This document shows positions 12,020 through 57,858 of a stretch of 64,000 bases of DNA, piece by piece. The position numbers were made by a program, and so were the translations under genes. Position 1 is the stretch's first letter. Each line of letters opens with the position of its first letter. The notes beneath the pieces are model-generated. The model was not told where the DNA came from. It saw nothing but the letters and a program-made list of their open reading frames with translations, and did no database searches. The stretch comes from Escherichia coli (lineage in GTDB: Bacteria > Pseudomonadota > Gammaproteobacteria > Enterobacterales > Enterobacteriaceae). The stretch lies in the NCBI RefSeq assembly GCF_003334335.1, contig NZ_QOWQ01000017.1. One strand, given 5' to 3'.

Positions 12020-12955
12020 ATGGCACTGCCAATTCTGTTAGATTGCGACCCAGGTCATGACGACGCTATCGCAATAGTTCTCGCCCTCGCCTCACCAGAG
12101 CTTGATGTCAAAGCAATTACGTCTTCCGCCGGAAACCAGACACCAGAAAAAACCTTACGCAATGTTCTGCGTATGCTGACCTTGCTTAATCGCACCGATA
12201 TTCCGGTAGCAGGCGGCGCGGTAAAACCGTTAATGCGTGAGTTGATTATCGCGGACAATGTGCACGGCGAAAGCGGTCTCGACGGCCCGGCATTACCGGA
12301 ACCGACATTCGCACCGCAAAACTGTACGGCGGTAGAGCTGATGGCGAAAACGCTGCGTGAAAGTGCGGAACCTGTCACCATTGTGTCTACCGGACCGCAA
12401 ACTAACGTTGCCTTGCTGCTCAATAGCCATCCGGAACTGCATAGCAAAATTGCCCGTATCGTGATTATGGGTGGCGCTATGGGGCTGGGTAACTGGACGC
12501 CTGCGGCTGAATTTAATATTTACGTTGACCCGGAAGCGGCAGAAATTGTCTTCCAGTCAGGGATCCCGGTGGTGATGGCCGGTCTGGATGTTACTCATAA
12601 AGCACAAATCCACGTTGAAGACACCGAGCGTTTCCGCGCGATTGGTAACCCTGTTTCAACCATTGTTGCCGAACTGCTGGATTTCTTCCTCGAATATCAT
12701 AAAGACGAAAAATGGGGCTTTGTCGGCGCACCACTGCATGACCCATGCACCATCGCCTGGCTGTTGAAACCGGAGTTATTTACCTCTGTTGAGCGCTGGG
12801 TTGGCGTGGAAACACAGGGGAAATATACCCAGGGTATGACGGTTGTTGATTATTATTATCTGACAGGCAATAAACCGAATGCCACCGTAATGGTCGATGT
12901 TGATCGTCAGGGCTTTGTTGATTTACTGGCTGATCGTCTGAAATTTTACGCTTAA
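12020..12955 (+). CDS. rihA: pyrimidine-specific ribonucleoside hydrolase
   Basis: Start ATG 12020 after aaggag RBS; N-terminal DCDPGHDD nucleoside hydrolase motif. Confidence 0.93.
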
Positions 12956-13038
12956 CACACGTCATTGATTAAGATCACCACGCGTTACCTGGGTGGTCTT
13001 AATCTGTTTATCTCTTTTTCTTTCAAGATATAAATGCA

Positions 13039-14709
13039 ATGGATAATGCAGAACTCGCCATTGGTATCGATCTCGGTACTACCAATAGTTTAATTGCCGT
13101 CTGGAAAGACGGTGCCGCGCAATTAATTCCAAATAAGTTCGGTGAATATTTAACACCATCCATAATTAGCATGGATGAAAATAATCATATTTTAGTCGGA
13201 AAACCGGCTGTATCACGGCGTACTTCGCATCCGGATAAAACGGCAGCGTTATTTAAACGTGCAATGGGCAGTAATACCAACTGGCGGTTAGGCAGCGACA
13301 CATTTAACGCGCCAGAACTGTCCTCTTTGGTATTACGCTCATTAAAAGAAGATGCCGAAGAATTTCTGCAACGTCCGATTAAAGATGTGGTGATCTCCGT
13401 TCCGGCTTATTTCAGCGATGAACAACGCAAGCATACCCGTTTAGCAGCGGAGTTAGCCGGGTTAAATGCGGTACGCTTAATTAATGAACCCACAGCAGCT
13501 GCGATGGCGTATGGCCTGCATACCCAACAAAATACCCGTTCGCTGGTGTTTGATCTCGGTGGCGGCACGTTTGACGTTACGGTGCTTGAGTACGCCACGC
13601 CGGTGATTGAAGTTCACGCCTCCGCTGGCGACAACTTTCTTGGTGGCGAAGATTTTACCCATATGCTGGTCGATGAGGTTTTAAAACGCGCGGATGTCGC
13701 CAGGACCACGCTTAACGAGAGTGAACTGGCAGCCTTGTACGCCTGTGTGGAAGCGGCAAAATGTAGCAATCAATCGCCATTGCACATTCGCTGGCAGTAT
13801 CAGGAAGAAACGCGGGAATGCGAATTTTACGAGAACGAACTGGAAGATTTGTGGTTGCCGCTGCTCAATCGCTTGCGAGTGCCGATTGAACAGGCGTTGC
13901 GCGATGCGCGTCTGAAGCCGAGTCAAATCGACAGTCTGGTGCTGGTTGGCGGCGCGTCACAAATGCCGCTGGTGCAGCGAATCGCCGTGCGTCTGTTTGG
14001 CAAATTACCGTATCAAAGTTACGATCCGAGCACCATTGTCGCGCTGGGCGCAGCAATCCAGGCCGCCTGCCGCTTACGCAGTGAAGATATTGAAGAGGTA
14101 ATCCTCACTGATATTTGCCCTTACTCGTTGGGCGTTGAAGTTAACCGCCAGGGCGTTTCCGGCATTTTCTCGCCGATTATTGAACGAAACACCACTGTGC
14201 CCGTGTCGCGTGTAGAAACTTATTCAACCATGCACCCGGAACAGGATTCAATTACGGTTAACGTCTATCAGGGAGAAAACCACAAAGTTAAAAACAACAT
14301 TCTGGTGGAATCCTTCGATGTGCCGTTGAAGAAAACCGGGGCTTATCAGTCGATTGATATTCGCTTTAGTTATGATATCAACGGGTTGCTTGAAGTTGAC
14401 GTGCTTCTGGAAGACGGCAGCGTTAAGTCCAGAGTGATTAACCACAGCCCGGTAACATTGAGCGCGCAGCAGATTGAAGAGAGTCGGACGCGGTTATCCG
14501 CATTGAAAATTTATCCGCGCGATATGCTCATCAATCGCACCTTTAAAGCCAAACTGGAAGAGTTGTGGGCGCGGGCGCTGGGTGACGAGCGAGAAGAGAT
14601 CGGCCGGGTGATCACCGATTTTGATGCGGCGTTGCAGTCAAACGATATGGCCCGCGTGGATGAAGTTCGGCGGCGGGCGAGCGATTATTTAGCCATTGAG
14701 ATCCCATAA
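13039..14709 (+). CDS. hscC: Hsp70-family chaperone HscC
   Basis: 556 aa; Hsp70 signatures IGIDLGTTNS and DLGGGTFD; recognised as HscC, not DnaK or HscA. Confidence 0.93.
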   Translation: MDNAELAIGIDLGTTNSLIAVWKDGAAQLIPNKFGEYLTPSIISMDENNHILVGKPAVSRRTSHPDKTAALFKRAMGSNTNWRLGSDTFNAPELSSLVLRSLKEDAEEFLQRPIKDVVISVPAYFSDEQRKHTRLAAELAGLNAVRLINEPTAAAMAYGLHTQQNTRSLVFDLGGGTFDVTVLEYATPVIEVHASAGDNFLGGEDFTHMLVDEVLKRADVARTTLNESELAALYACVEAAKCSNQSPLHIRWQYQEETRECEFYENELEDLWLPLLNRLRVPIEQALRDARLKPSQIDSLVLVGGASQMPLVQRIAVRLFGKLPYQSYDPSTIVALGAAIQAACRLRSEDIEEVILTDICPYSLGVEVNRQGVSGIFSPIIERNTTVPVSRVETYSTMHPEQDSITVNVYQGENHKVKNNILVESFDVPLKKTGAYQSIDIRFSYDINGLLEVDVLLEDGSVKSRVINHSPVTLSAQQIEESRTRLSALKIYPRDMLINRTFKAKLEELWARALGDEREEIGRVITDFDAALQSNDMARVDEVRRRASDYLAIEIP

Positions 14710-14713
14710 ACAC

Positions 14714-14752
14714 GGCTGCCGGATGCGGCGTAAACGCTGCATCCGGCATCGG
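14714..14752. repeat. REP element between convergent hscC and djlC
   Basis: gctgccggatgcggcgtaaacgctgcatccggcatc, near-perfect REP palindrome. Confidence 0.7.
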
Positions 14753-14768
14753 CGCAAAAAACACATCG

Positions 14769-16220
14769 TCAGCTAAACAACATCGCGATTTTGCCGAGAG
14801 CATAACCTATCACCAGCACCGTTAAACTGATTTTGATAATGCTGGTAATGCTCTGTGGTTTTTCACCCTCATCATTTTTTTCTTCATGATTTTCAGGTGT
14901 TGGCTCATCGACATCTTCATCCTCCGGCTCGAGTTTCACTTTCGTCAAAAGCATCCGGGTGACAATGGCCTCTAATGGATGAGCATCTCCGCCTTCCAGC
15001 CTTGTATTAAGACGGGCCAGCATCTCTTGTTTCGGAAACGCTTCAAGTACTACCTGTTCCGCTACCCGATACAAATCCAGGAACGGTGAATCTTGCTCTG
15101 TCTCGCTACCGACTCTCGATTTCCACCACGCCCATGCTTTGCGCTTGAAGAATAACGACTCAATAAACGATTGACCTAACGGCGATAATTTTCCGCTATG
15201 TAAAATCTCCGCCCATAACAGCCGCGTCCGGGCGCTCTCACCAGGAACATATTTCAGCGGTTGACCTTGCGCATCTACCATGCTCCGCGCTTCGATAACC
15301 ATCACTAATAACGCGAAATAATCCGGGCAATGACGCTTGCTCCACTGCAACAACAAATTATCAGCTTGTATAGATGGGTAACTTTCCCAGTACGCGCAGA
15401 GATCGGCAAGCAGGCTTTCCCCCTCGCCGCAGTACAAACGTTGTGCACACAAGTAATACCGGGCATCTTCGCTTTCTGGTTCTTCCGTTTGCCACTGTTG
15501 AGCGACAGGAATGAGTTCCGCCATACCTGTTTGCACCGAGCTGTACCAGCGCAACAGTTTGCGATGTAACTTTGCATCATCAGGAATTAACCACGGACCT
15601 TCCATCGCCAAAAACGCAGTGACATAGTCAGGATGGTAACGGCAGCAACGTTCCAGCGCGAAGTAATACTCAACAGTCTGGTTCTGCAACGCAATGGGAT
15701 ATTCCAGAAGGCTAAGGAAATCGAAACAATCACCAGCCTGAATGGCCTCAAGAAAAGCCTCCCTTTCTTCCTCATCCATTCCTTCGCTGTCATTAAATGA
15801 ATGCCAGTTCAAACGCTCTGCCAGCAAAGAAGCACAATTTAATGAAAGATATCGCGCTTCTATGGCGATTGCACACAGCGGCCAGCGTAATTGATCGACA
15901 TCCTCCATGTTCCAGGTATTTAATTGCTGAATAAATTTCTGCCAGGCGGAAGGCTGAAAACGATCACTTTCTGAATCCAGTAATGTCCTGAATGCACGTA
16001 GTATTTCATGTTCAACGGCAGCATCTTTTTCTTCATCATCTGCTTCCTCGACAGGATTTACCGCCAGTCGCAGGGCCTCTTCATAGGCCTGGCGTAATGC
16101 TTTAAACCCTTGCGGATCGGTTTCGGGATGACACAACGGTAAGCGAGCAAGATAAGCCTGGCGGATAATGTCTATTTGCGTCGTGCTTTCAATTTCGAGG
16201 ATTTGCCAACATGTTTTCAT
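14769..16220 (-). CDS. djlC: J-domain-like co-chaperone of HscC, C-terminal membrane anchor
   Basis: 483 aa; N-terminal J-like domain with HPE tripeptide, C-terminal hydrophobic tail; paralogue of djlB; 4-nt overlap with ybeU. Confidence 0.88.
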
Positions 16221-16924
16221 AGGTCGCTCACATCCTTAAGCGTTACCGGGCATTCAGACTGGACAGTTAATGGCTGCCAGGGAAGCGTGGCATAGAAACG
16301 ATCGCTTCCCGCTGCCAGCTCTTCGAACATACGACTCCCGGCGCTATCGTATTTGTACAGGGTTAGCGCCTCGCGTAGCGAAGTGTTGTCTTCGCACTGA
16401 GAAGATTGCCAGTAGAGACGTCCTAACGAATAGGCGGAAAAATAGTGCATCCAGCTGTGATAGTAATGGTGAGCTCGTACATAGACGCGCGATTGCAGCC
16501 ATAAACTCTCTTCTTCCGTCAGCCACTTGTTGAGCACACCGACCCGTGACAGAAACCCCATTCGAACATAATCCCAGGCTTTGATTCCCCCTTCCCCACA
16601 GCACATAGCGGTTTGGGCAACGAATTGGGTATAAATCAACCCTCTCTCCGAGCCACCAGCAATTAATGCTTTCCACTCTTCAGGGGAAGAGCGATGCCAT
16701 GTCAGATATAAGCCAGCTAAATCATTGGCATGACCATCATCAGTCATCTGATAAATAGTCTGAATTAAATCATCACGATTATTTATTCCCCAGGATGATG
16801 AGAGCTCGAATTCTTTTATCCCAGTATACATTTTTGGCGAGTCATGCGCGGGTTTGCAACCCTGATTAAGTATTTCCATGGGCGCAGAAAGCGCAAAAAG
16901 AAGATATTGTTCTTCCTTATTCAT
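16217..16924 (-). CDS. ybeU: DUF1266-family protein
   Basis: 235 aa; clear paralogue of YbeR in this window; translationally coupled to djlC. Confidence 0.88.
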
Positions 16925-17025
16925 TTGTTAATAATCCCTTAAGTGCATTAACTGACTACTTTTTTATTATTGATGAGTATAAACTTGACGCTTTCAAAAT
17001 AAAAAGAAAATCGAAGCATTCACAC

Positions 17026-17580
17026 ATGAATAAAAAATTAATGTATATATTCGCAATTTTTATAGTTGCAGCAATTACCTGTATTAGCCAACCCAAGAAA
17101 ACGACGTTGCGTGATAAAGCCATGGTGAATTATGCCTTTGATTATTTAAGCTCACCGGGCAGTCTTCCATTCACCACGGCAGCCACGGAGCTTTCCGCGA
17201 TTCATGGTCACTCAACGTCGCAATATCGCCTTGGAGAATTTTATCTTCATGGTAGCGACGGTAAACCACTGGATTATACACAGGCGAGATACTGGTATGA
17301 GCAATCAGCGGAACAGGAAAATCCACGCGCGCAAAGTAAACTGGGGTGGATCTACCTCAAAGGTCTGGGGGTCAAACCCGACACCCGTAAAGCAATTCTC
17401 TGGTATAAGGAAGCAGCTGAACAAGGGTATGCTCATGCTCAATATACTTTAGGTTTGATCTACAGAAATGGCTCAGGTATTAATGTTAACCATTATGAAT
17501 CTCAAAAATGGTTAAAACTGGCCGCCAAACAACATTACAAAAATGCGGAAAGATTACTTGCCGGGCTTCCCGCACATTAA
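17026..17580 (+). CDS. ybeT: Sel1-repeat (TPR-like) protein
   Basis: 184 aa with N-terminal signal/TM segment and Sel1 repeats ([30 protein letters not shown]); AT-rich gene. Confidence 0.85.
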
Positions 17581-17589
17581 CGTCGACTG

Positions 17590-19017
17590 TCACCCGAACA
17601 GATGGAGTATTTTCCCTATCAAACCAGCAAAGATAAAAATATAGAAAATAATTTTAATGATGCCCAGACAGCCTGGCCCACCATCGTCAACGGGCATTGG
17701 CTGCGGTTGCGGCTCCGGTTCAACAGTTTGCTTCTCGGTAAAATTCGCCGCCTGAATTAATAATCGACGAATAATTAATGCTTCCAGTGGACAACGATTT
17801 TCTGCATCAAGGCGGCTCACAATCGGCATTAATGATTCTTCTGTAGGTTGGCAGGCCTGCACTAATTGTTTGGCAACTAGATATAATGGCCATAAGGTAT
17901 GTTCTGTATCACGCGTGAGTGAGATCCGCGGCTTACGTCCTTTGTGCAAAACCATCTCGACCAGTGAACGCCCCAGCGCAGAGAGTTTTTCATCGCTGAG
18001 TATTTCGTATAAATGAAAACGCGTACGGGCGCTGTCGCCGGGGACATAAAGTAGCGGTTTTCCCTGATCGTTAACCAGATCACGCGCTTCAATCATCATC
18101 ACCAGTAATGGGTAATAATCGACCCGATGCTGACGGCACCATTGCAACATTAAAGCATCCGCCTGGGTGGAGGGATACTCGCGCCAGTAGTCACAAAGTT
18201 CTGCCAACAGGCTTTCGCCTTCTCCACAATAGACGCGTTGCGCGTATTCATAATAAGGCGCATCTTCATTATCAGGTTCAGTTTCCCGCCATGACTGGGC
18301 GTAATCCAGAAGTTCGGGGATATCCAGGCGACCTGCGCTATACCAGCGGAGTAAATTTCTGTGCAGTTTTGCATCATCGGGGATAATCACTGCGCGATGT
18401 TGCGCTAAATACAATGTCAGCCATTGTGGATGCGATGACCAAATCCGAGCGAACATTTGGTAAAAATCGATGGTGTCATTTTGCACGGCAACGGGCAGAT
18501 GCAGAATGGTCTGGAAGTTAAAAACATTCCCCTTCGCAATGGCATATAAAAAGGATTCCAGTTCTTCTTCGTCTATTTCCCCGGTATTTTCCTCCTGTAA
18601 CCACCGCAATCTTTCTGCTAATAACACCACGCACTCGAAGGATAAATGGGCAGTGTTCATGGCGATTGTGCACAGCGACCAGCGTAATTCATCAATCTCC
18701 TCCATCGAGCAATAATTTAATTGCTGAATGAATCGCTGCCAGGCGGAGGGCAGAAAACGTTCACTATCAGAGGCAAGTAACGCACGAAAGGCGAGCAGAA
18801 TTTCATGTTCTGCTACCTCATATTCTTCTGGTTGCCAAACAGATTTAGCAGGCGACTGCGCAATCCGTAGCGCCTCCTCATACGCCTGACGAAGTTGTTT
18901 AAAACCCTGCGGATCGGTTTCTGGATGAAAGGACGGTAACAGCGCCAGATAAGCGCGGCGGATAATATCGACGTCAGTCGTTTCCTCTATATCGAGGATC
19001 TTCCAGCAATTTTTCAT
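17590..19017 (-). CDS. djlB: J-domain-like co-chaperone, C-terminal membrane anchor
   Basis: 475 aa; paralogue of djlC with same HPE tripeptide and hydrophobic C-terminus; 4-nt overlap with ybeR. Confidence 0.88.
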
Positions 19018-19721
19018 AGGTCGCTCATATCCTTAAGCGTTTCCGGGCATGCAGAATAGTAAGCCAATGGTTGCCAGGACAAGGTAGGGTAATACGCATC
19101 ATCACTGGCAAATAATTGATAAAACATATCATTGCCGGAATCGTCGTATTCTTTACGCGCTAAGAATTCGCGTAATAAAGGCAGATGATCATCTTCGGGA
19201 GACTGCCAATATTGCCGACCAAAGGTATAACCGGCAAAGTATTGCCGCCAGTTACTATAATAACGTAGAGCCCGTAGATGAATGCGCGACTGGATCCATA
19301 GACTTTCTTCTTCGCTCAACCAGTTATTAAGTACGCCCATTCGGCTTAAAAAACCCATCCGGACATAATCCCAGGCTTTGATTCCCCCTTCGCCACAGCA
19401 TTCGGCGGTGCTGGCGACAAATTGCGCATAAGCCTGACCTTGCTCATTTAGTTCAGCAAGATAGTCACGCCATTCACATGGCGAATAACGAAACCAGCGG
19501 TGATAAAACCCTGCCAACCGAGCGGCATGACCGTTATCGATCATTCGGTGAATTGTGCGCAGCAGGTCATCACGGTCATCAATTCCCCATGAGGAAGAAA
19601 GGTCAAAAAAGCATGTACCTAAATACATTTTGGGTGATGAATGCGAAGGTAAACAGCATTCATTGCGTATTTCCATCGGAGTGGAAAGTGCAAACAATAT
19701 TTTTTGCGACTCCATGTCCAT
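19014..19721 (-). CDS. ybeR: DUF1266-family protein
   Basis: 235 aa; paralogue of YbeU. Confidence 0.88.
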
Positions 19722-19878
19722 ATAATTTATCCTTAAATATTCATTAAATGAATATTAGCCGCATTGCGAGGCTCGTTTATTTATACTTTTCTGACGCGAC
19801 ATAATACGCATAAAATAAGGCTTACGCAAAAATGGAACACATAAAAATATAATATGTTTTATCTGCAACCATAAGGAA

Positions 19879-20862
19879 ATGATAATGATTTTCACGTCAA
19901 GTTGCTGCGATAATTTATCAATAGATGAGATTATCGAACGTGCTGAAAAAGGCGATTGCGAGGCTCAATATATTGTTGGGTTTTATTATAATCGCGATAG
20001 CGCAATTGATTCTCCGGACGACGAAAAAGCCTTTTACTGGCTGAAGCTGGCCGCTGAGCAAGGTCATTGTGAAGCACAGTATTCCTTAGGGCAAAAGTAT
20101 ACCGAGGATAAAAGCCGTCATAAAGATAATGAGCAAGCCATCTTCTGGCTGAAAAAAGCTGCCCTACAAGGCCATACTTTCGCTTCCAACGCCCTTGGCT
20201 GGACACTGGATCGTGGAGAAGCCCCCAATTATAAAGAAGCGGTTGTCTGGTATCAGATAGCCGCGGAGAGCGGAATGTCTTATGCGCAAAATAATCTTGG
20301 GTGGATGTACAGAAATGGCAACGGAGTCGCAAAAGACTATGCGCTGGCATTTTTCTGGTACAAACAAGCTGCATTACAAGGCCATAGTGACGCGCAAAAC
20401 AATCTGGCCGATCTTTATGAAGACGGAAAAGGCGTTGCTCAAAACAAGACACTCGCCGCATTCTGGTATTTGAAAAGCGCACAGCAGGGTAATCGGCACG
20501 CCCAGTTTCAAATTGCATGGGATTATAACGCTGGCGAAGGGGTGGACCAGGACTATAAGCAAGCGATGTACTGGTATCTGAAGGCTGCCGCTCAGGGGAG
20601 CGTCGGCGCTTACGTCAACATCGGTTATATGTATAAACACGGACAAGGCGTTGAGAAAGATTATCAGGCTGCCTTTGAATGGTTTACGAAAGCCGCTGAA
20701 TGCAATGACGCCACTGCCTGGTATAACCTGGCCATTATGTATCACTACGGAGAAGGAAGACCTGTCGATCTCCGACAGGCTCTCGACCTGTATCGTAAAG
20801 TTCAGTCATCCGGAACCAGAGATGTCAGTCAGGAAATTCGTGAGACTGAAGATTTACTGTAG
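19879..20862 (+). CDS. ybeQ: Sel1-repeat (TPR-like) protein
   Basis: 327 aa with about seven Sel1 repeats (AQYxxG...G); exact start (M1 or M3) uncertain. Confidence 0.85.
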   Translation: MIMIFTSSCCDNLSIDEIIERAEKGDCEAQYIVGFYYNRDSAIDSPDDEKAFYWLKLAAEQGHCEAQYSLGQKYTEDKSRHKDNEQAIFWLKKAALQGHTFASNALGWTLDRGEAPNYKEAVVWYQIAAESGMSYAQNNLGWMYRNGNGVAKDYALAFFWYKQAALQGHSDAQNNLADLYEDGKGVAQNKTLAAFWYLKSAQQGNRHAQFQIAWDYNAGEGVDQDYKQAMYWYLKAAAQGSVGAYVNIGYMYKHGQGVEKDYQAAFEWFTKAAECNDATAWYNLAIMYHYGEGRPVDLRQALDLYRKVQSSGTRDVSQEIRETEDLL

Positions 20863-20931
20863 AGATAAAAACAAGGGCCGGGGAATTTCATTCGGCCCAT
20901 ATTCTCTTTATTGCTGTGCGAAATCAGACTA

Positions 20932-21414
20932 TTACGGCTCAAACGGGCGTCTCTGGAACTGGTCATGACCACATTTCGGGCATAGCGTCAGCACTTCCGG
21001 TGTGTAGATCGGGAGATGGAAGTGACATTTCTCGCAGACCAGATTTCCCAGCCCGACCACTTCTCCGCTGTGATAAACCCCATGATGATTGAGGTCCTGG
21101 AAAACTTCGCGCCATTCAAGCTGCGTTTTATCGGTGATGTCTGCCAGCTCCTGCCACAAGCTTTCTTTAATCACCCGCATAAAGACGCTGTCAGATTCTT
21201 CTTTCAGGCTCTCTTCATAGCTCATGGCGAACTCTTCCAGGTCACGTCTGACAGCTCGCGTCAGCTCATCGACCTCGGTTCGCGTTAACTCCCCTGTTTT
21301 TATTACGCGCTCGCGCGCCTGTTCCACCAGTGCGTCGATATCACGTTCGCCATTGCGCAGGCGTTCGCTCAGTGACGCAACCAGTTCACGGTAATATTGA
21401 GCAACCTTGTTCAT
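20932..21414 (-). CDS. ybeL: zinc-ribbon DUF1451-family protein
   Basis: 160 aa with C-terminal CxxC...CPKC zinc-ribbon; recognised YbeL. Confidence 0.88.
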   Translation of the reverse strand: MNKVAQYYRELVASLSERLRNGERDIDALVEQARERVIKTGELTRTEVDELTRAVRRDLEEFAMSYEESLKEESDSVFMRVIKESLWQELADITDKTQLEWREVFQDLNHHGVYHSGEVVGLGNLVCEKCHFHLPIYTPEVLTLCPKCGHDQFQRRPFEP

Positions 21415-21648
21415 CGTTTCATCTCCCGGGTCGTTAACTGACTATAATAATAGACGTTCTTTGTTCCTTGCTTTGCTAATACGCCCACAAACTCTGTAAA
21501 TTAATGTATGAATAATCCGGGCATCATTTCAACGTCGAGTGCGCGAAAGGCTGTTTTGACGCGGACGTTTGGGCTATGCTATGCGGATCTGAAAAACCAC
21601 CTCAACGCTACATTTGTAGCCGTATTGAAAACAGGACCACTGGCTGCC

Positions 21649-38882: not shown

Positions 38883-38911
38883 AAAAAAAACCCGCTGATT
38901 AAGCGGGTTTT
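38883..38911. terminator. bidirectional rho-independent terminator between crcB and cspE
   Basis: aaaaaaaacccgc-tgattaa-gcgggtttt. Confidence 0.75.
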
Positions 38912-38930
38912 GAATTCTTGCTGACGTATC

Positions 38931-39140
38931 TTACAGAGCGATTACGTTTGCAGCAGAAGGGCCTTTGGCACCGTTAGTGATTTCGAACTCTACGCGCTGA
39001 CCTTCAGCAAGAGTTTTAAAACCATTAGTCTGGATTGCAGAGAAGTGTACGAACACGTCTTTGCTGCCGTCTTCCGGAGTAATGAAACCGAATCCTTTGG
39101 ACTCATTAAACCACTTAACGTTACCTTTAATCTTAGACAT
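38931..39140 (-). CDS. cspE: cold-shock-domain protein CspE
   Basis: 69 aa from internal ATG ([12 protein letters not shown]...); RNP1 motif KGFGFI. Confidence 0.93.
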
Positions 39141-39314
39141 CAAAATTACCTTTACATGAAAAATAGACACAAATGCTGTGTCGGTTACCAGTACACCAAT
39201 TGTGGTACGCTTTGTCCAGTGTAACTTTACTAAAAAGTGATAAAAGTCGCGTTATTTTTGATGTTACTTATTTTAGCTATTGATTTTAAAGAAGTTACTA
39301 AAACTTCATTTGTC

Positions 39315-39875
39315 TCAAAACTGAAAGCGCATCCAGGCAAAGTACACATTGCCATTGTTGTAGGTACCCGGAATGTAGGTCATCTGAAAAGTCACTGGGC
39401 CATAACCCACGGAGGCCAATGGCAGTAGAACCGGGAGAGGGATGTAATTCCAGTTATCGCGTGCCGTTACGCCAGCGGTGAATCCCAGACCTAAATGAAA
39501 ATTTTCATCCGCCAGCGGTCGCCAGGTACTTTCCCATCCGTATCCGGCAATCGGTTCCCATTTGTTCCACGAGTCCTTAAATGCCATGGCATACAGGCCA
39601 TGCCAGTTTCCTTTTTCATCCCAACGCGACAGGCCAAAACCGCCACCCCACGGTCGCTCGTTATAGCGATCGGTTTTTTCTTTGTCGTAAGCGAAACGTG
39701 CATGCCAGGTGATGGCAGGAATATATAAATCATAATGTTCAGGCTGTTGCCAGGTTTGTGCAATATTTTCTCTAAACGTTGTCATCCACTCATCTGCGTT
39801 AGCAAAAACTTTACCAACGCTGATTAACTGAATAAAAACAAAGGAAAAGATAGCGACATATTTACTCACGTTCAT
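39315..39875 (-). CDS. pagP: lipid A palmitoyltransferase PagP (outer membrane)
   Basis: 186 aa from MNVSKY start with signal peptide; recognised. Confidence 0.92.
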
Positions 39876-52235: not shown

Positions 52236-52382
52236 TCATCTGATTTACAAAACACGCTAATTCGTCTTCCATAAACCAAGGCGATTAAGATTTATACATA
52301 ATGCGCTGCATTGAGGAATTCCCTGAATGTGACGCAAATCACTTCAAAGAGTGAGCAACAGTCAGTATCATCATGTGAGTTA

Positions 52383-52417
52383 AACCCTCGCCGCCTGACG
52401 GTGAGGGTTTTCTTTTG
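52383..52417 (+). terminator. rho-independent terminator between rna and rnk
   Basis: aaccctcgcc-gcctgac-ggtgagggtt followed by ttcttttggg. Confidence 0.65.
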
Positions 52418-52464
52418 GGTATGTTTATCTGCGACACTCGCAGCACCGACGACATGGAGTAAAA

Positions 52465-57487: not shown

Positions 57488-57858
57488 CTATACTTCCTCC
57501 GTGTTTTCGATGAGATGTAAGGTAACCAATTTTTGCCGATTCGGCTAATGCGTTTCCATTATCAAATCGATAAGTTTTACCTTACAACCTTCGTAAGACA
57601 ACTTTGTGAACTTTGCACCGCCAGCGGCGATAAAAAGTAAAATGGCCCCCTTTCCAGGTGACCGTGTAATCTGAACTACCCTTTGGTATCTTCAGTGCCT
57701 GCCTGCAGGCTGAGGTGTTGCCCTTACAAATGCAACAACGACATGGATTACAACACCCTCATAAACAAAGGGCAATCACCTGATCTAAGCTCTTACCTAT
57801 GACAGTGATAGGTTATGCCTTTTACTCGACTTTTGCACTGACTGAAAAGGACAAATTA
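57488..57858. promoter_or_regulatory. divergent ahpC / dsbG control region with OxyR-type inverted repeat (CTAT-N7-ATAG at 57797-57811)
   Basis: 371-bp spacer between divergent ahpC and dsbG; both are established OxyR regulon members; partial match to the ATAG-N7-CTAT OxyR motif seen at 57786-57822. Confidence 0.5.

Follow-up and report, generated by a model that had tools for sequence, protein, structure and literature searches.

DjlC and DjlB, the two J-like proteins encoded in the window (the whole 64,000-nucleotide stretch of Escherichia coli DNA that was analysed), carry His-Pro-Glu (HPE) at the position of the J-domain tripeptide His-Pro-Asp (HPD). The substitution is real, ordinary and already known. 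It is a signature shared throughout the family of J-like proteins that partner HscC, a specialised Hsp70, and no new discovery, as HPE has been explicitly stated for both proteins (PMC10410713, PNAS 2023; PMC13254874, Cell Stress Chaperones 2026).

Position of the tripeptide and fold of the J-like domain

An earlier note on this DNA had placed HPE at codons 31-33 of both genes, and these codons were indeed read there, as CAT CCC GAA in djlC and CAT CCA GAA in djlB (Table 1). When family profiles of 13 and 77 sequences were compared with the PDB, J-domains were the sole matches (42 chains at E≤0.01, every one a J-domain, with a best value of 1e-8). Both profiles aligned HPE column for column with the HPD of DnaJ, CbpA and DNAJA1, and the tripeptide of DjlB fell in the same profile column as that of DjlC. 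HPE therefore occupies the true tripeptide position, homologous to HPD, and is no chance tripeptide; His-Pro-Asp, the mark of a J-domain, is replaced in both proteins. The sole other HPD, at residues 196-198 of DjlC, lies in the helical domain, is unmatched by the J-domain profile and corresponds to HPQ in DjlB, so that no true HPD was found elsewhere.

When the two translations were compared directly, their J-like domains were identical at 41 of 53 residues. The full-length E. coli proteins matched the Pfam DnaJ model (PF00226) weakly (E=0.036 for DjlC and 0.0017 for DjlB), the match ending in both at model position 51 of 63. With the J-like region of DjlC as an isolated fragment the value was 0.00099, and 76 of 77 family N-termini, taken as 72-aa fragments, were matched at E≤1e-3 (best 2.2e-10). 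A single-sequence PDB search with DjlC 1-101 was drawn by the acidic linker and returned designed helical repeats only; family profiles were therefore required to reach J-domains.

The AF2 model of DjlC displayed a short helix I (4-8), helix II (16-26/29) and helix III (36-54), with HPE within the loop 27-35 that connects helices II and III in an antiparallel hairpin. The hairpin had a pLDDT of about 89 when the fragment was modelled and of 90-95 when the full-length protein was. All the best Foldseek matches of the J-like model were J-domains, 5NRO_B being superimposed with an rmsd of 2.1 Å over 53 columns. No helix IV was predicted at residues 55-71. A disordered acidic linker directly follows the J-like domain, residues 58-68 being disordered, and the next helix is 72-82, which might pack on the hairpin. 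DnaJ, CbpA and DjlA (PDB 5NRO, 1XBL, 2KQX) thus share this hairpin and have their tripeptide in the corresponding loop. Unlike these, DjlB and DjlC have Glu for Asp, a loop after the tripeptide that is 3-6 residues shorter, a less basic helix II and no predicted helix IV.

Table 1. Features of the hscC-djlC-djlB region of the window.
Feature	Position	Strand	Remarks
hscC, 556 aa, specialised Hsp70	13039..14709	+	convergent with djlC
djlC, 483 aa	14769..16220	-	J-like domain, acidic linker, DjlB_C 72-427, C-terminal membrane anchor
DjlC tail-anchor helix, residues 458-482	14775..14849	-	AF2 helix 458-482; best hydropathy window 464-482
DjlC J-like domain, residues 1-54	16059..16220	-	Pfam DnaJ 4-47; AF2; Foldseek
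DjlC codons 31-33	16122..16130	-	CAT CCC GAA = His-Pro-Glu, helix II/III loop
ybeU (DUF1266)	16217..16924	-	stop overlaps djlC start by 4 nt (ATGA)
ybeT, Sel1/TPR-repeat protein	17026..17580	+	divergent from ybeU-djlC
djlB, 475 aa	17590..19017	-	djlC paralogue, 49% identity
DjlB C-terminal hydrophobic tail, about residues 449-475	17593..17673	-	best hydropathy window 449-467
DjlB J-like domain, residues 1-54	18856..19017	-	Pfam DnaJ 4-47, E=0.0017
DjlB codons 31-33	18919..18927	-	CAT CCA GAA = His-Pro-Glu; profile column same as DjlC's
ybeR (DUF1266)	19014..19721	-	stop overlaps djlB start by 4 nt (ATGA)
ybeQ, Sel1/TPR-repeat protein	19879..20862	+	divergent from ybeR-djlB

Gene neighbourhood

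The gene names djlC and djlB follow the RefSeq annotation, and over positions 13000-21500 the window agrees with E. coli strain WG5 in every base (100% identity). In precomputed matches the J-like domain was followed by the helical domain DjlB_C (PF27158) in nearly all homologues and in distant members. In DjlC this domain spans residues 72-427 of the AF2 model; Foldseek with the full-length model gave weak TPR-like likenesses only (E about 0.1, TM about 0.2), and no known fold could therefore be assigned to it. Membrane insertion of DjlC is reported in the passage of PMC8215388 that cites Peschke 2018. The NCBIfam collection held no model for DjlB, DjlC or YbeR and gave one sub-threshold match for YbeU, and PADLOC returned chance-level matches only, on the Sel1 proteins; these results therefore provide no evidence of a known defence system. 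A scan of 12900-21500 for promoters and terminators found sites no more numerous than in shuffled sequence.

Conservation in the DjlB/DjlC family

Close homologues were inspected as 90%-identity cluster representatives, and HPE was present in all of the approximately 110 with an intact N-terminus. Thousands of sequences from E. coli, Salmonella, Citrobacter and Enterobacter are represented by these clusters. Among distant cluster representatives 88/102 carried HPE and none HPD, giving 196 HPE and no HPD in the 210 motif-bearing family proteins. The survey of orthologues for HPE versus HPD that the earlier note had proposed was thereby answered in favour of HPE.

Residues H31, P32, E33, P36, G38 and F39 were invariant in 44 full-length members, and DjlB and DjlC present both the signature of the subfamily, HPE-x-DP-x-GF, and its short loop. 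Y23, H31, P32 and F39, the counterparts of DnaJ Y25, H33, P34 and F47, were invariant or nearly so in the family. The codons of the tripeptide differed widely: GAA (49) and GAG (31) for Glu, CAT (42) and CAC (33) for His, and all four codons for Pro. To judge from the codons, this synonymous turnover with the amino acids kept is purifying selection on HPE. Variants in which His is replaced (SPE, NPE, KPE and RPD) also occur in the family. Some of them adjoin an HscC-type gene, and the loop may thus not work exactly as that of DnaJ; for one RPD protein the contig was too short for neighbouring genes to be read.

Linkage to HscC-type Hsp70 genes

A query with the J motif would be circular for counting HPE. 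Genomes were therefore scanned with patterns of the HscC substrate-binding domain, which are unbiased for the J motif, and the 80 loci closest to E. coli, of at least 588, were taken from Gammaproteobacteria and Bacillota. A J-like gene was adjacent at 79 of these 80 closest loci, separated from the Hsp70 gene by a median of 3 nt. The 84 J-like domains found beside the HscC-type genes of the same 80 loci comprised 75 HPE, 4 SPE, 4 RPD, 1 NPE and no HPD; among more distant HscC-like systems HPD partners may exist. From the J side, a neighbouring Hsp70 of about 560 aa was present at 5/5 distant loci. The pair is usually found with a DUF1266 protein, DUF1266-J-HscC being a conserved module, and the 4-nt gene overlaps suggest that YbeU and YbeR may be partners of DjlC and DjlB.

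HscC is stimulated by DjlC, while DnaJ, CbpA and HscB are without effect, according to PMC8215388 where it cites Kluck 2002. The section of PMC13254874 citing the same work likewise gives stimulation of the HscC ATPase by DjlC; for DjlB no such stimulation is reported. In the reverse direction, the J-domain of DnaJ is not replaceable by that of DjlC, as stated in the lines of PMC1906734 that refer to Kluck 2002. The specialised coupling to HscC suggested by the earlier note fits both the linkage at 79/80 loci and this published stimulation.

HscC side of the interface

In the window hscC and djlC are convergent and 59 bp apart. HscC displays the features of its type: about 550-580 aa, no GrpE signature and, in alignment with DnaK, deletions of 76-101 and 208-211 and an insertion in the substrate-binding domain, a pattern which agrees with the description in PMC8215388. 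In DnaK, R167 and Q378 bind Asp35 of DnaJ, and both are kept, as HscC R146 (13474-13476) and Q341 (14059-14061); R167 was kept in 77/80 and Q378 in 80/80 of the HscC relatives (closest 80 of at least 588). L391 and P419 (DnaK numbering) are also kept, so that the Hsp70 residues reading the tripeptide are those of DnaK. Unlike DnaK, HscC has no acidic 208-211 loop (absent in 80/80 of the closest relatives, of at least 588) and shows L392T (T357 of HscC), D477S/T (S444 of HscC) and G379A/G380A, with T at 392 and S/T at 477 constant in the relatives surveyed. In the published passages cited above (PMC8215388, PMC1906734), no cross-stimulation between the two systems is reported. Both Hsp70s with Lys at the position of DnaK R167, one of them from Pseudomonas, pair with RPD J-proteins, which may point to compensatory co-evolution of the trigger site itself.

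Discussion

The most probable explanation, and one we hold with good confidence, is that HPE serves as the functional catalytic-loop motif in an old and distinct J subfamily dedicated to HscC-type Hsp70s, in which Glu33 would contact R146/Q341 through an interface that co-evolved and is insulated from DnaK. Homology, conservation and linkage, the stimulation of HscC by DjlC and the absence of cross-talk with DnaJ/DnaK, on which this explanation draws, are established here or in the literature. We infer from them the contact of Glu33 with R146/Q341, together with the reason for Glu over Asp. The N-terminal J-like hairpin of DjlB or DjlC would dock on ATP-bound HscC. As in DnaJ-DnaK, the contacts of His31 and Pro32 would be with the interdomain linker and with the substrate-binding domain. 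Glu33, in the place of Asp35, would bond to R146 and Q341 and so trigger ATP hydrolysis. HscC retains the residues that the acidic one would meet directly, hence nothing obvious requires the longer side chain; its extra methylene may have been retained because the remaining interface co-evolved, by a shorter loop and a less basic helix II on the J side and by the loss of the acidic 208-211 loop, L392T, D477S/T and G379A/G380A on the HscC side. Through these changes the HscC system would be kept separate from both DnaK and the J-proteins that serve DnaK. A further proposal is put forward only tentatively: the third-position Glu and the shortened loop may together be a true specificity switch that separates the membrane-bound DUF1266-DjlB/C-HscC module from DnaK and, relatedly, the canonical His may not be strictly needed.

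The unchanged counterparts of R167 and Q378 could also be read as a sign that a near-neutral Asp to Glu change was fixed once in the ancestor of DjlB and DjlC and kept by descent, specificity residing wholly in other interface residues such as the 208-211 deletion, L392T, D477S/T and the less basic helix II. However, Glu to Asp takes a single nucleotide, and HPD was found in 0/210 family proteins and 0/84 HscC-linked domains from two phyla (80 closest loci of at least 588), although the codons of HPE turn over freely; canonical families are inversely near-invariant, with about 99% HPD (PMC10410713). Each of the two tripeptides thus seems to be under selection in the setting where it occurs, and such a frozen accident is considered rather unlikely. 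Loss of function is a far weaker candidate. The low scores of the full-length proteins against Pfam DnaJ, the unpredicted helix IV and the His-less variants would suit a degenerate domain, a non-stimulating binding or structural module like the 'type IV' proteins without HPD; against it stand the retained loop and DnaJ-essential positions (Y23, H31, P32, F39), the tight gene linkage to an Hsp70 and the published stimulation of HscC by DjlC, as far as it is given where PMC8215388 and PMC13254874 cite Kluck 2002, which together make degeneration very improbable. An error of sequencing and a change peculiar to this strain can both be dismissed, and nothing was found in their favour. The same residue is found in both paralogues, an argument already made in the earlier note. 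The Pro codon differs synonymously between them (CCC vs CCA), and HPE also occurs in the E. coli, Salmonella, Citrobacter and Enterobacter clusters and in distant genera.

The preferred reading, a J subfamily dedicated to HscC, has a parallel in HscB-HscA, where a dedicated J-protein gene also lies beside that of a specialised, GrpE-independent Hsp70, in a closed two-component system parallel to DnaK (PMC8215388). Unlike DjlB and DjlC, which have HPE and are membrane-anchored, HscB has HPD and a single client, IscU. HPE J-domains were catalogued by Malinverni et al. 2023 (2,921 sequences, about 1% of J-domains), who named DjlB and DjlC among roughly 1,600 HPE proteins without another annotated domain (PMC10410713). 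These share the third-position Glu, but the eukaryotic ones differ in architecture, including sodium/calcium-exchanger domains, and presumably have canonical Hsp70 partners. The 'type IV' J-like proteins with a broken HPD, such as DNAJB13 (PMC13254874), resemble DjlC in their non-canonical tripeptide and are presumed to be non-stimulating, in contrast to the activity reported for DjlC on its own Hsp70 in the passages citing Kluck 2002. A literature search found no published DnaJ D35E mutant.

What is added here is a wider survey, in which HPE strictly tracks HscC-type Hsp70s across two phyla at the closest 80 of at least 588 loci, together with the usual DUF1266 companion, the unchanged Hsp70 trigger residues and the rare His-less variants; the DUF1266-J-HscC module and the His-less variants are modest side observations. 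No element of the Hsp70 co-chaperone system is more conserved than HPD, and function is normally lost when it is mutated. A natural, active Glu variant bound to one Hsp70 subfamily is therefore useful, as has already been pointed out in the literature for DjlB and DjlC: it offers a means of studying how ATP hydrolysis is triggered by J-domains, and how cross-talk is avoided between Hsp70 systems that run side by side in one cell.

The HPE tripeptide and its place in the J-domain

The region carries the gene order hscC-djlC-ybeU-ybeT-djlB-ybeR-ybeQ (names according to the RefSeq annotation), and positions 13000-21500 of the window are 100% identical to E. coli strain WG5. His-Pro-Glu (HPE), which an earlier note had read in both DjlC and DjlB in place of the canonical His-Pro-Asp (HPD), was found exactly at the expected codons of both genes (see table).

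Features of the window, of the DjlC protein and of surveyed loci (AF2, AlphaFold2; window positions unless residues or a locus are named)
Feature	Position	Strand	Remark
djlC ORF	14769..16220	-	483 aa
DjlC codons 31-33, CAT CCC GAA (HPE)	16130..16122	-	translation of ORF
djlB ORF	17590..19017	-	475 aa
DjlB codons 31-33, CAT CCA GAA (HPE)	18927..18919	-	translation of ORF
DjlC J-like domain	residues 1-54		AF2 model
DjlC disordered region	residues 58-68		AF2 model
DjlC helical domain (DjlB_C)	residues 72-427; 14940-16007		AF2 model, confident all-helical
DjlC disordered region	residues 434-455		AF2 model
DjlC C-terminal helix	residues 458-482		AF2 model; hydropathy peak at same place
ATGA overlap, ybeU/djlC	16217-16220
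ATGA overlap, ybeR/djlB	19014-19017
ATGA overlap, distant locus L001	8001-8004
ATGA overlap, distant locus L002	6677-6680
ATGA overlaps, distant locus L006	8001-8004; 9362-9365
Five-tRNA cluster	719-1198		Rfam match
sroC sRNA	9589-9751		Rfam match
cspA-type thermoregulator leader	38883-39325	-	Rfam match
rnk leader	52311-52419		Rfam match
STnc70	57632-57725	-	Rfam match just above threshold

Full-length DjlC and DjlB were weakly matched by Pfam DnaJ (E = 0.036 and 0.0017; residues 4-47 on model positions 2-51 of 63), and a PDB search with a single sequence returned nothing relevant. Two family profiles, built from 13 sequences and then from 77 N-termini, matched exclusively J-domains in the PDB. 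The larger one recognized 42 PDB chains at E ≤ 0.01 (best 1e-8), including E. coli DnaJ (1BQZ, 1XBL, 5NRO_B) and CbpA (2KQX, 3UCS). In the profile alignments HPE falls on HPD column for column, the loop after the tripeptide being 3-6 residues shorter in the DjlB/DjlC family. When the 77 N-termini were scanned as isolated fragments, 76 matched Pfam DnaJ at E ≤ 1e-3. In the AlphaFold2 model of DjlC 1-72, residues 4-8, 16-26 and 36-54 are helical, HPE sits in the loop spanning 27-35, and the acidic tail is disordered. The PDB structures that Foldseek ranked closest to this model were without exception J-domains, e.g. 5NRO_B (rmsd 2.1 Å, 53 columns). Judged by the family profiles, the question is settled: HPE occupies the position of the J-domain tripeptide. 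On the J side, Y25, H33, P34 and F47 of DnaJ are retained as Y23, H31, P32 and F39. Helix II is less basic (e.g. K26 of DnaJ is L24).

HPD occurs just once in the two proteins, as RYHPDYV at DjlC residues 196-198 (window 15627-15635). This site is within the helical domain, outside any J-domain context, and has HPQ in DjlB; the objection that the true HPD is elsewhere therefore fails. This internal HPD could mislead a motif scan. The full-length DjlC model had a pLDDT of 86.5, and its helical domain showed weak TPR-like structural neighbours at best (Foldseek E about 0.1, TM about 0.2). According to PMC8215388, which cites Peschke 2018 on this point, DjlC inserts into the membrane.

Conservation of HPE

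Every close homologue whose N-terminus is intact had HPE at 31-33. These homologues form about 110 clusters (90% identity) of Escherichia, Salmonella, Citrobacter and Enterobacter proteins, some of which represent thousands of sequences; within E. coli, the cluster representatives at 90% identity were inspected. When 1.84 billion representative proteins were scanned in full, 1,575 matched at E ≤ 1e-3. The 150 best matches included 102 with the aligned motif (HPE 88, NPE 10, RPD 2, KPE 1 and one HPPE insertion), and HPD occurred in none of the 102. The tripeptide is thus no strain-specific mutation. Since many distant members comprise 800-1,200 aa, the 480-aa E. coli form is the family's short version; some distant relatives carry additional TPR or DUF805 regions.

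Linkage to HscC-type Hsp70 genes

Counting HPE in the results of a search built on the motif itself would be circular, so genomes were scanned with substrate-binding-domain patterns of HscC-type Hsp70s. Matches came from at least 588 species genomes; the analysis covered the best 80 loci, those closest to E. coli. They cover Gammaproteobacteria (Budvicia, Yersinia, Erwinia, Gilliamella, Pectobacterium, Pseudomonas, Shewanella, Aeromonas, Vibrio and others) and Bacillota (Paenibacillus, Cohnella, Saccharibacillus, Clostridium, Terribacillus and others). A J-like ORF adjoined the Hsp70 gene in 79 of these 80 loci, the median gap being 3 nt. Their 84 J-like domains read HPE (75), SPE (4), RPD (4) or NPE (1), and HPD in no case. 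Looked up from the J side, five of five distant family members likewise adjoined an Hsp70 of about 560 aa. These counts fit the altered or specialised coupling to HscC proposed in the earlier note. In one locus of the 80 (L060, Paenibacillus sp. Root52) no J-like ORF lay within 8 kb, and the ORFs flanking the Hsp70 gene gave no J-like match; by eye, we take these to be flagellar-motor-like and UvrB-like.

Natural J-like domains lacking His also stand beside an HscC-type Hsp70: SPE (loci L065, L067, L071, L085), NPE (L073 and P0246/L003), RPD (L070, L077, L086) and KPE (P0243/L090, next to an Hsp70 of about 560 aa). Wherever the third residue was Asp, the first was Arg.

The homology, the conservation and the linkage of the HPE J-like family to HscC-type genes are direct observations. 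At the DNA level the tripeptide drifts while its amino acids are held: in the 80 loci Glu is encoded by GAA (49) and GAG (31), His by CAT (42) and CAC (33), and all four Pro codons are in use. As Glu and Asp are just one base change apart, this turnover argues for selection on Glu. The main rival explanation treats Glu as a conservative change that became frozen, specificity residing elsewhere in the interface; it is less likely, because HPD is completely absent from the J-like domains surveyed despite the synonymous turnover.

The Hsp70 side of the interface

In the DnaJ-DnaK co-crystal (5NRO, reviewed in PMC8215388), H33 of DnaJ bonds the backbone of DnaK L391, P34 packs on P419, D35 bonds R167 and Q378, and K48 bonds D477, with D211 as an additional contact. 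HscC was aligned to a DnaK sequence verified against PDB entries. R167, Q378, L391 and P419 are conserved as R146, Q341, L356 and P388. D477 corresponds to S444, and HscC lacks the 208-211 loop. Among 80 HscC-type proteins (the best 80 of at least 588), R167 is R in 77 and K in 2, Q378 and P419 are invariant, and L391 is L in 74 and M in 6. The 208-211 loop is missing from all 80, L392 is T in 80, D477 is S or T in 80, T475 is R in 79 and G379-G380 is mostly Ala-Ala. Judging from the alignment, the residues reading the acidic third position are unchanged and their surroundings remodelled. The two Hsp70s with Lys at R167 (L070, L077) are both paired with RPD proteins; both are from Pseudomonas and may not be independent events.

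In the most likely mechanism, ATP-bound HscC would be engaged by the J-like hairpin in the way that DnaK is by DnaJ, with Glu33 standing in for Asp35 opposite R146 and Q341. The greater length of the Glu side chain would suit an interface displaced by shortening of the J loop and loss of the acidic loop. Glu itself may also contribute to insulation from DnaK; this idea and the Glu33 contact are inferences.

DUF1266 companion genes and variation of the island

A DUF1266 ORF accompanied the J/Hsp70 pair in 66 of the 80 loci (best 80 of at least 588). In both E. coli modules, where the DUF1266 genes are ybeU and ybeR, and in three distant loci it shares the 4 nt ATGA with the start of the J gene, an arrangement suggestive of translational coupling. 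The literature search on DUF1266 found almost nothing.

E. coli has two J+DUF1266 modules (window 16217-19721) and a single hscC. Among the loci compared with E. coli (L058, L068, L069, L082 and L077), such pairs are duplicated beside one Hsp70 in Paenibacillus, and one Pseudomonas locus has two J-like genes beside a single Hsp70, with no DUF1266 match. These duplications look independent. The island (13000-21500) is variably present, at least 80% of it being found in 3,657 of 5,426 complete E. coli genomes. Some genomes lack the djlB-ybeR-ybeQ part (match H9, 68% covered), and in others nothing is left but ybeL, alone or with ybeQ (H10-H12). The Rfam matches outside the HPE region are ordinary.

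Relation to published work

A survey (PMC10410713, PNAS 2023) counted 2,921 J-domains with HPE (about 1% of all J-domains), roughly 1,700 of them prokaryotic, and named DjlB and DjlC as examples; the HPE of these proteins is therefore real but already known. What is added here is the quantification of the HPE-HscC link from the Hsp70 side, the retention in HscC of the residues that bind Asp35, the DUF1266 gene as a companion of the J/Hsp70 pair, and natural variants without His.
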